Positions 30,001 through 33,000 of a DNA stretch of 64,000 nt are shown here, in pieces. A program made the position numbers. The stretch is from Phycisphaeraceae bacterium. GTDB lineage: Bacteria > Planctomycetota > Phycisphaerae > Phycisphaerales > Phycisphaeraceae. Location: assembly GCA_963674705.1 (NCBI GenBank), contig OY771506.1, positions 1,984,001 through 2,048,000 of the forward strand, given 5' to 3'. Every line of letters starts with the position of its first letter. Positions within the stretch are counted from its first letter, which is position 1.

Positions 30001-33000
30001 TCTACGTGTGTCAAAGAGCCATCGAAAATGCCTCGATTATGCAGTCACAAACCGTCGGGCCACTACACGGTTACAATCGATCGGGTGCCTTCAAAACAGG
30101 CAAGAGCATAACGTGTTGTGCCTAACCGTTTAATACTATCTGGCGTTTTAACCCAATGTAATACTTTTGTGGCAGATCAAGTCCATACCGGGTCCGTTAC
30201 CCGCAAGAGGCTGAATAATCTTCATGCATGGATGAGCACGCTTTTGCCTATACGAATGTTAAGACGCTCGAGGTTCGAGCGAGGTCGTGTTGTTCTTAAC
30301 AGGTTTGGACTAGACCTTATCTTGATTTCATTTCACGGTGACATGGCGATTGGGCTAGAGTGAAAACCAACACTTCTTCACCCGTGACGGTGCTAACATC
30401 GTGATGAAGACTCACAACCTTAGTACCAGTTATGTCGCTTATCATGGCTTCCATCAGCGGACGCGCGGTTTCAATCAGGTGCGTCCGTACCTGCTTGAGT
30501 AAATCCCGCCCCTTCTCCGAGGGCAGCGTTTTAACCAAGTGCTGCTCCGCGGCGGTCAAGACACCCTCAAGCCGGACTACAAGAAAGTCCCGGATCAAAT
30601 GTGCGCGAATACCTTTAGGCCCCCGCCCCATGTAATCCTGTTCAAAACGGCTAATCGCTTCGCAGACTGCGGCCTCAATTTCGCCTAGCGTTTTCATGAT
30701 TGCCTCGGTTGCGTGATTCAATATTGACGTAACATCTGTGAAATCAATGAGACGTGGCTTGCCGGACCCAATAATACCGCCACCACATTGATATGTCCTC
30801 TGGTACTTATTTTACCCAATATCAAACGGGATTACTTGATATGACTTGCTTTCCCAAACAAGCCCGCTATTGTGTAGATAGTGTCGAAGCCAAGGCGGTG
30901 CTATATCGGTTTCGATATCGGATGACTAGGTAAAGGGCAGACCGAATAAGAGGTAGGCCCGTTGACAAGTAAGCCGATGTGGTTCACCACCCCCAGGGTG
31001 CGGAACCACATCGGCTTTTTTTCTTGCTGATATCAGTGACTGTTCAGGATGCCTACAAAGCAAGAAATTTCTTTGATTGCAGGTCATCAACGTACAAAAG
31101 GAACCCGTCATGTCCACGATGAACGCGCCGACACTTCAGCCAGCAGGTAGTGACAACCGGTGGGAACATATCGGTGAAAGCCAGGGCTGTGCCAACCACG
31201 ACCATGACATTGTGCATGAGTTGAGTCGGCGCCTAGACGCCGTCTGGCGATACGACCAGTTCATCGCTAACGCGGAAGGTCGTGAAGCACTTCAGTCGTG
31301 CTGGAGAGAATTCAAGGAGCATGATATGCAGAGCATCATGCGTCTGAAGGCGATTTTGAAGAATGAGATTATGAATGGCTGTTTCTGACTCGTATTGATC
31401 ATTTGTGACAATAACCAAAGCAGGATGCGATGAATGAGAACCGACTGACGATGGTCCAGCAGGTGGCAAGGGCAGCCAGTATCTACCAACAACAGCAAAC
31501 CGGTCATGCTCCTAAGAGAGTAACCGTCGTATTGGGCGAGGGGACGCTGGTAATCACGCTACACGGTGCTCTTACTCCCGCAGAACAGGCTTTGGCTGTG
31601 AATCCGGCTGGCGCCGCGGAGGTGCAGAACTTCCATCGTCAACTCTTCGCCAATAGTTCCGATTCACTAAGGAAGGAGATTGAAGCGATCACCGGAATAG
31701 ATATACGTGATGCGGCCTTGGAGGTTGAAACATCGACCGGGTCCGTGTTACACGCCTTCTCCGGCGGCACCGTGGTTCAGGTATTTCTGATGGCTGAGAA
31801 TCTGTCTGTGGAAATATGAGATGCGGTAACAGAGGACACGCCGCCGGATCCCAACACGGGGTGATTGGATGGGGCATGTTATCACGGATTCGCAGCAAGA
31901 CGGTCGATGCCATCCATTGACAGCGGGCATTCACCCAATTCTCCCGGGCGCAAGATAATTCAGGTAACGGTACGCCGCGATAGTTAAATCGAATTTGTCT
32001 TGTACAAGTTCGATTCATTGAAAGGAAAATGATTATGTTATGGACAATTACAATTATTGCAGTCGTATTATGGCTGCTTGGACTTCTAACCTCTTACACG
32101 CTCGGCGGTGTAATTCACATTCTGCTTGTGATAGCGCTCGTTGCGGTAGTCATTCAATTGATCCAGAATCGCAGGCTCTCGACGTAGGAGGCACGCTCAA
32201 ATTCAAAAGGCACGTGGAATGGTAACAATCAAACATTATTCAGAGAGATCTCGACTATCAACATCTCGCTCGGAGGACAACTCGCGGCAAGTCGGGGAAC
32301 ACCCGCCCTCTCACGACGACATCAGCTATCGAGCATATGAGATCTATGTCAGAAATGGCTTCATCCAGGGTCAGTGTAAGCTTGACTGGCATCAAGCGGA
32401 GTGTGAACTGCTAAACAAAAATACATGACAAAAGCAATACACGGCGATAGGGCAATCATGGCAACCGTTTAACATACGGGTATTACTGCTAGGCAGAGAC
32501 GGTTGCCGGCCTTACGGAGGGTAAAGGCCGGCACCGGCTGCCCGGTGGGGAATTGGAGTTTATTGACAGATAATAATTACGGTGGCAGCGGAGCAATGAT
32601 GTAAGCAGCAACGTGATCAATCTACAAACGTTTGGTAAGGGGGAACTGCATGCGAATGTGGATGCTTGCCAGATATGATGTGTAGTGACATCGATTGGAT
32701 CGCAGGACGAGGTCGACGGGTATATCACTGCAGCGATGATGTTTGTTAGGCATATATTGATTATTCCCTTGTATGTTACGACAAGAAGTTTGATTTAAAT
32801 GCCCTGTTGACTATAATAGATACGAAAATGGAGCCGGAATGAAGTAGATGAAGGTCTCCAGCTTCGGATGACTAGCTAAGGGGCAAGTCGTACACCGCGA
32901 CAGGCCCGTTGAAGAGTAAGCCGATGTGGTTCAGCACCCCAGGTGCCGTTCCACGTCGGCTTTTTTGTTTTACCGATTTAGGCCAGCAATGACTGGATTT

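Follow-up and report, generated by a model that had tools for sequence, protein, structure and literature searches.

The leader RNA that precedes stress genes in the Phycisphaeraceae bacterium studied here is a real, uncatalogued family of attenuators. Its predicted layout, which consists of a promoter, a structured domain, and a terminator that excludes this domain, is supported as that of an ON-type attenuator. A protein of the MpsC/DUF2294 family likely binds the leader hairpin and would allow read-through into the stress genes, and the operator of the switch is probably a protein rather than a ligand. A protein antiterminator is pointed to because the motif is tied to MpsC/DUF2294 genes both in genome content and in position.

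The pattern search of the genome identified CGGATGAC on the plus strand of contig OY771506.1 at 2014919, 2016865, 3571646, 3581620, 3585678, and 3604947. The identical six copies were scored at 92-101 bits by the covariance model R1, which was built from the stress-gene leader subtype only, and both searches agree with the survey's finding of six plus-strand copies. Two of the six (30919-30976 and 32865-32923) are contained in the window, which is the whole 64-kb stretch of DNA that was analysed. Shuffled window DNA exhibited matches in 0 of 100 shuffles. The motif had also been described as missing from Rfam, and this stands, as no family was matched over window positions 28000-36000 at E<=5 and Rfam 15 gave no gathering-score match anywhere in the 64 kb. 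The leader was also unmatched in 29 Rfam scans of related loci, where only c-di-AMP riboswitches and tRNAs were found elsewhere in those loci. A literature search, with most subscription journals outside its scope, found no description of the leader RNA or of MpsC function. The available main text of PMC11109978 does not mention Planctomycetota or DUF2294, and a prior listing in the supplement of that paper is possible. The yjbJ motif in the available text of the same paper was considered as a match and rejected, as it is given for Streptococcus only.

The leader begins with the promoter, which an optional 5' hairpin may follow; the antiterminator hairpin and the terminator come next, and the gene is last. 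The first window copy has a predicted sigma70-type promoter on the plus strand (30846..30873, TTGCTT-16-TATTGT), followed on the same strand by the antiterminator hairpin (30918..30977; pattern, shuffles, and folding) and the intrinsic terminator (30973..31022; folding). The first gene after this copy is a plus-strand ORF of 92 amino acids without a Pfam match (31110..31388), a close homologue of which also follows the copy at 3571646. The next gene on the copy 1 transcript is a type-B MpsC/DUF2294 paralogue (31430..31819, plus strand; PF10057 at E 1e-19 and 213 bits on the subfamily profile A3). Two small stress-type genes, encoding DUF5670 (32035-32187) and DUF2934 (32219-32428), are located on the plus strand between the two copies. 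The second copy, also on the plus strand, consists of a predicted sigma70-type promoter (32790..32817, TTGATT-16-TATAAT), a folded 5' hairpin P0 of the GGAG/CUCC type that precedes the conserved core (32829..32859), the antiterminator hairpin (32864..32924), whose long, irregular stem conserves A·G/G·A opposites, and the intrinsic terminator with its U-tract (32920..32966). The 5' arm of this terminator, GCCGA, is common to the antiterminator, and the hairpin base P1 (UCGG/CCGA) competes with the terminator. Directly 3' of copy 2 is another type-B paralogue (33007..33414, plus strand; PF10057 at E 9e-15 and 115.6 bits on A3). A canonical type-A MpsC/DUF2294 gene is divergent from copy 1 on the minus strand (30317..30721; PF10057 at E 2.5e-37). 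Type-A mpsC is kept in the same divergent position in related genomes, and the protein encoded at 30317..30721 is a candidate trans-acting factor.

The conserved core had been part of the search pattern of the survey, and its invariance was held to be partly circular. This concern was answered by a metagenome scan that used the 3' half of the motif alone and left the 5' half free. The scan found at least 122 loci, and among the matches listed with enough upstream DNA, CGGATGAC was regained upstream with at most one mismatch in 103 of 121. The middle motif was present in 118 of the 126 matches listed, including one GTDB locus, and the eight misses comprise three truncated loci, one variant (70.8 bits), and four chance matches. 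In alignment A2, which contains 111 distinct sequences (109 scan loci and both window copies), positions outside the pattern such as G8, G9, and C14 are conserved at 98-99%. A looser pattern was of little use. Almost all of its matches in GTDB were due to chance, with one of 122 running on into the 3' core, and over 401 genomes of the phylum it was largely noise, including a match in genome G053 that is not the motif (L129). None of the 43 pattern matches in viral contigs was convincing.

Of 110 members, 76 have a promoter of the form TTGnnn-16/18-TAnnnT in the 130 nt upstream, compared with 6.0±2.3 in shuffles, and the GGAG..CTCC 5' hairpin is found in 27 of 68 leaders, compared with 0.6 when shuffled. 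The conserved domain is one symmetric hairpin of ~60 nt with a variable loop, in which columns 5-34 pair with columns 47-77 of A2 (92.4% paired). The survey had described an alternative P1; these strands do pair and overlap the terminator, but P1 is the base of this one continuous hairpin and not an alternative to it. Two-sided changes in A2 were observed in 8 hairpin pairs (equalled by 28 of 500 shuffles) and in 62 cells (equalled by 0 of 500), with the support for P1 coming from few changes, as the hairpin base was fixed by the search pattern and hardly varies. A·G/G·A opposites break up the stem, and non-canonical covariation is seen at two of them (27/55 AG<->GA, z 10.7, and 28/54, z 9.4). 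The top covarying pairs of A2 contain no pseudoknot or multi-helix junction, in a core that is nearly invariant and has little room to covary.

The helices also covary in 26 covariance-model matches that were chosen for a base-pair check independently of the search pattern, after 13 antisense echoes had been dropped and with the alignment fitted to the model. P2 exchanges GC, AU, CG, GU, and UA in these matches, G9-C73 is replaced by A-U once, and flips occur three times each at C7-G75 and A13-U69. A10·G72 is kept in 22, G12·A70 in 24, and C14-G68 in all 26. A bulged-G (sarcin-ricin-like) AGUA/GAC loop was considered and rejected. The hallmark of such a loop is an invariant U·A reverse-Hoogsteen pair and not a Watson-Crick ACU/AGU helix, and in the alignment fitted to the model A13-U69 becomes U-A in three Bacillota copies while C14-G68 is kept in 26/26.

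The 3' end had been reported as common to the hairpin and the terminator, and both structures are seen: the terminator exhibits two-sided changes in 15 of 19 pairs and recruits the GCCGA strand of P1. In computed folds, 109 of 111 full leaders have the terminator as their minimum free energy structure, and none has P1. When the nascent RNA ends at column 80, P1 folds in 109 of 111, and the computed cost of forcing P1 in the full leader is 8.3±2.1 kcal/mol. The survey's predicted ON layout of terminator and antiterminator is supported (folds, 109/111), but its riboswitch-like label, in the sense of ligand binding, is the weaker reading.

The downstream ORFs are located on the same strand, mostly 65-130 nt past the core. 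Among the metagenome matches listed, 34 of the 99 first ORFs, which were picked heuristically and were lacking for 19 of 118 instances, encode MpsC/DUF2294. The other first ORFs include those for transglycosylase-associated proteins (5), CsbD (3), ice-binding-like proteins (3), DUF3309 (2), and ECF sigma factors (2), and single ORFs encode CsrA, a receiver, DUF5670, DUF3185, an MS-channel, and a desaturase. MpsC/DUF2294, CsbD, transglycosylase-associated, DUF3309, and receiver genes had been noted behind the leader before and are found again, but HPF, which had been listed with them, is absent among the 99 ORFs. The remaining four copies of the genome are located close to genes for an MS-channel, ferritin-like protein, Hsp20, GroEL, and desaturase. 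The downstream MpsC proteins belong to a distinct subfamily (type B) that is ~25% identical to the type-A protein at 30317-30721.

The motif was found in at least 11 of 401 sampled genomes of the phylum (~3%), comprising ten long BLAST matches and G128, which was identified with the covariance model; the count is a lower bound, with 2-25 candidates scored per genome. The occurrence across Planctomycetota that the survey had claimed is therefore broad but patchy, and relatives are also found in Bacillota. Type-B MpsC, called at 85 bits or more on A3, was identified in 9 of the 401 genomes, all of which are among the 11 motif genomes. In each of these nine genomes, type B lies behind a motif copy, and canonical mpsC, which is broken in G128, is located divergently from a copy. 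Three genomes depart from this pattern: G044 carries the motif but only type A, G055 (89% complete) carries the motif without any PF10057 match, and G219 has a fragment of type B but lacks the motif. PF10057 itself is present in only 14 of 151 genomes. Of the metagenome loci listed, 38 of 95 have type B no more than 500 nt downstream, and 20 of 57 have a divergent type A (13 of 23 loci in which type B follows, 2 of 20 in which it does not). These linkage counts are inflated by kinship and island transfer, as the relatives are not independent, and the linkage of leader and MpsC may reflect the co-transfer of one island.

Ten of the 14 PF10057 genomes (among 151) lack the motif, and in nine of these ten a sister leader, judged by eye, is located beside mpsC. 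It exhibits a promoter in most cases, a GGCAGAU stem that closes on AUARGCC, and an overlapping terminator. A fixed rule for this leader identified 5 of 13 loci compared with 0 of 120 controls. Its targets are PEPCK (six, one an MpsC-PEPCK fusion), DUF4914, a fragment of the bicarbonate transporter Sbt_1, and Usp/DUF1275. The register common to the two leader subtypes was read by eye, and MAFFT did not align them. The best match of the model R2 in the window is a distal GGCAG/AGGCC site of copy 1, which is suggestive only (E 0.058).

PF10057 was identified in 33 of 101 Bacillota genomes. R1 matched 8 of 31 mpsC loci from other phyla (30 from Bacillota and one from Nitrospiraceae, the latter without a match), all within about 450 nt of mpsC, and 0 of 32 control loci, which are GC-rich and not terminator-matched. 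Seven of the eight matches show the core by eye and the eighth, L404, is a terminator alone. R2 added L407 and a second site in L400; L408 belongs to the R2 training set. Most loci (22 of 31, including that of Nitrospiraceae) exhibited nothing beyond a bare terminator with R1 or R2. Several Bacillota leaders begin right behind the mpsC stop codon without a promoter consensus (for example L392, L397, L410, L407, and L408). The genes that follow the Bacillota leaders include those for biotin carboxylase (L394, via mpsC), CO_dh/POR (L392), and a NuoL-like protein (L396).

S. aureus MpsC and B. subtilis YbcI belong to the same family, PF10057 (DUF2294). A receiver domain is present in 54 of 99 longer MpsC homologues, with MpsC at the C-terminus, and the studied genome and G003 encode one receiver-MpsC fusion each (292-293 aa, 293 aa in the studied genome, where it is located in the region of contig positions 3609576-3610484). 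Regulatory output domains such as ANTAR are arranged in this manner (PMC12591593). In the AlphaFold model (pLDDT 91.7), MpsC exhibits an α-ββ-αα-ββ order. Structural comparison of the model gave a best Z of 6.8, with TRAPP/V4R-like folds at 6.2 and none clear of background; RbfA, which has the KH-II/RbfA-like RNA-binding fold, reached Z 5.7 (rmsd 3.9, 88 aligned), below unrelated rows. Foldseek returned no match to the model at E<=0.001, the Atlas search returned MpsC clusters alone and none after their exclusion, and the PDB sequence search with A1 returned only kinase-fusion matches (E>=0.01) that were judged implausible. MpsC is not basic (pI 6.65; 5.2 and 7.9 for type B). Type A conserves GRGP, K..R, and S.H.D across phyla, and type B is without several of these. 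According to the available text of PMC6689103, MpsC is dispensable for MpsAB transport, which leaves a non-transport or regulatory role for it open. The same text reports that S. aureus ΔmpsC grows normally in air and ΔmpsAB does not, which argues against MpsC as an essential activator of mpsAB in that species, and a section heading states that mpsA falls at 5% CO2 (PMC6689103).

In the proposed mechanism, initiation would be constitutive and termination would be the default. The nascent RNA is predicted to fold the antiterminator first, with the terminator winning at equilibrium by ~8 kcal/mol. An active MpsC-family protein would clamp the hairpin base during transcription, the terminator would thereby be shortened, and RNA polymerase would read on. 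The binder may be either canonical type-A MpsC or the fusion of MpsC to a receiver, and it would recognise the tandem A·G loop as well as the conserved GGnnGAY/RUARGCC base. A likely partner in feedback is the type-B paralogue encoded behind the leader. Phosphorylation via the receiver fusion is the likely input to the stress regulon, and inorganic-carbon status is the likely input to the PEPCK, SbtA, and carboxylase versions. The sequence parts and their order, the promoter consensus, the covarying helices, the overlap, and the gene linkage are observed here, and we infer that the protein binds, which paralogue does so, what the signal is, and in which direction the effect runs. P1 is predicted to form first, and for this reason the kinetic default could be read-through, in which case the factor would act in the reverse sense. 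The RNA is 110 nt and the protein 13 kDa.

Alternatively, the purine-rich internal loops of the leader might bind a small molecule or ion, for example bicarbonate/CO2, a cation, or a nucleotide alarmone, which would make the leader an ON riboswitch and mpsC a co-regulated target or neighbour; we consider this unlikely. In terminator-type ON riboswitches P1 competes with the terminator stem, and the expression-platform logic of the leader, in which P1 overlaps the terminator, is identical. The near-invariant unpaired or mismatched purines (A10·G72 and G12·A70), the many copies ahead of varied genes, and the motif in G055 without mpsC agree with this reading. Riboswitch aptamers typically, if not universally, have a junction or pseudoknot, of which the leader exhibits no signal in its top covarying pairs, although its core is too invariant for such pairs to covary. 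The leader also has no Rfam match and a tight link to one protein family. One core also serves two differing target sets (stress genes as opposed to PEPCK, SbtA, and carboxylase genes), the sister leaders that are downstream of or divergent from mpsC are unable to regulate mpsC, and the receiver-MpsC fusions mark MpsC as a regulator.

It is improbable that the attenuator depends on another direct binder, such as CsrA or an RRM, KH, or ribosomal protein, with MpsC as the controlling sensor or partner. The fold matches of MpsC do include TRAPP, H-NOX, and V4R-like sensor folds (Z 4.4-6.2). The genome has three CsrA genes, one of them in stress island 2, and csrA is found once behind the motif among the 99 first ORFs listed. 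The CsrA/RsmA site is ANGGA in a hairpin loop, and CsrA, which the survey had suggested as a binder of the GGA, fits the leader poorly: only 2 of 111 sequences have ANGGA at the 5' core, P1 of the nascent RNA pairs the GGA, and the GGA varies in relatives, which read GGCAGA, GGUAGA, or GGAAGUC. Among the loci listed, no gene besides mpsC stays so consistently near the leader. An unregulated or physically tuned attenuator (with a fixed leak, temperature-dependent, or pause-dependent) or a short terminated sRNA gene, with downstream genes under their own promoters, is very improbable. In its favour, an own promoter and strong terminator would yield a discrete RNA of ~140 nt, and the targets include ice-binding-like proteins and desaturases. 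Against it, the base-specific conservation of mismatches and the covariation exceed the needs of a thermometer, ORFs follow on the same strand at mostly 65-130 nt, and the mpsC linkage is left unexplained.

The putative MpsC-dependent antiterminator was also compared with known systems. RAT is a single hairpin rich in internal loops with a consensus of ~30 nt; the leader is also a single hairpin rich in internal loops, but unlike RAT it is ~60 nt long, and its core is probably different. According to the available text of PMC12591593, RAT bound by BglG, SacY, or LicT (CAT) excludes an overlapping intrinsic terminator and meets its 5' arm, and the gene for the regulator often opens the controlled operon or lies next to it (bglGFB, licTS); the leader shares these features. 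Unlike in the CAT systems, the linked protein is PF10057 without PRD domains, and the targets are stress- or CO2-linked instead of sugar operons. CAT_RBD (PF03123) had 0 matches in the genome (96.6% complete), and the control was positive in 4 of 14 genomes. The ANTAR domain is helical, unlike the MpsC domain, which is α/β in the AlphaFold model. The search of the genome for ANTAR (PF03861) gave 0 matches, as did its positive control. The leader and MpsC resemble the ANTAR systems (AmiR, NasR, EutV) in having a small domain C-terminal to a receiver or PAS domain and a multi-locus regulon of leaders that overlap terminators, but ANTAR targets dual hairpins and the leader is a single long hairpin with a variable loop (PMC12591593, available text). 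The Bacillota loci L392, L397, L410, L407, and L408 are similar to HutP/hut of Bacillus subtilis, in which a small stand-alone protein is encoded just before the terminator. The RNA is different, as the target of HutP is listed as dual hairpins (PMC12591593, available text), and HutP is absent among the fold matches listed for the MpsC model, none of which is above background. Table 1 of PMC12591593, in its available text, lists bglGFB, licTS, and hutP as regulator-first operons, the same layout as that of the Bacillota leaders behind mpsC. The leader resembles RAT/CAT, ANTAR, and HutP in its working, and their defining features either failed here or were not demonstrable.

The described families of site-specific RNA-binding antiterminators are few, with CAT, ANTAR, and HutP in the table of a 2025 review (PMC12591593, available text). 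If the binding holds, the leader and MpsC would be a new family of protein-dependent antitermination, and should a ligand prove to be bound in place of the protein, the leader would be a new riboswitch class. The wider reading, which we offer tentatively and hold to be somewhat less probable than the binding itself, is that the DUF2294/MpsC/YbcI proteins make up a new family of RNA-binding antiterminators that spans several phyla and has a hairpin class to itself. In its ancestral form, the system would couple inorganic-carbon status to operons for PEPCK, the bicarbonate transporter, and carboxylase, and it may have been rewired in some planctomycetes as a general-stress master switch, with the receiver-MpsC fusion driving the switch and a divergent paralogue, placed under its own terminator, tuning it. 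The available text of a 2026 preprint states that the mechanisms regulating the mpsABC/ndhF-ybcC genes remain to be explored (10.64898/2026.09.08.750065). If true, the finding would provide a function for a widespread, unexplained protein of the mpsABC/ndhF-ybcC bicarbonate-uptake operons of model Firmicutes, and it would reveal a planctomycete stress regulon that is run from housekeeping-type promoters.

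The first gene downstream of two motif copies is a conserved 92-aa ORF (window 31110-31388; L317:5842-6120) that has no Pfam match. The window island is adjoined by an integrase-core (rve) transposase (28706-29929), and its GC content is 51% compared with 56.6% for the genome. A similar rve ORF is also present in the second stress island (L318:8594-9223). In G000, the Phycisphaeraceae genome under study, a short, decayed sequence similar to the CBS gene of the window comes after copy 4 of the motif (C1:3581620), and a tRNA-like remnant that was not called by ARAGORN comes after copy 6 (C1:3604947). 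The decayed sequence and the remnant suggest that the islands have been rearranged or inserted.

A motif copy in the sampled genome G055 (locus L432) is located upstream of a DUF2934-like ORF and adjoins toxin-antitoxin-like genes. This genome has no match to PF10057. The permissive search pattern has five short repeated matches in genome G053, and the one inspected (L129), which lies in GC-rich surroundings, is not the motif.

The MpsC domain is also found in fusions. A 293-aa receiver-MpsC fusion (G000 C1:3609576-3610484, corresponding to L376:1000-1881) is encoded at a distance of about 5 kb from copy 6 of the motif and is a candidate for the signal input. In genome G012, a GTP-dependent PEPCK with an MpsC domain joined at its N-terminus is encoded downstream of a sister leader (L353:580-2427). 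The protein P0001 contains two MpsC domains in tandem, which is consistent with a dimeric function.

At the Bacillota locus L400, c-di-AMP riboswitches (Rfam RF00379) alternate with MpsC-type leaders around mpsC (1040-1182, 1260-1317, 1872-1999, and 2534-2674), and tandem control by both elements is possible. PMC7857571 reports that ndhF-ybcC is raised seven-fold without c-di-AMP. At locus L388, two leaders (1005-1084 and 1302-1394) are on the strand opposite that of mpsC, and one of them has a promoter consensus of its own. Transcription that reads through them would enter mpsC antisense.
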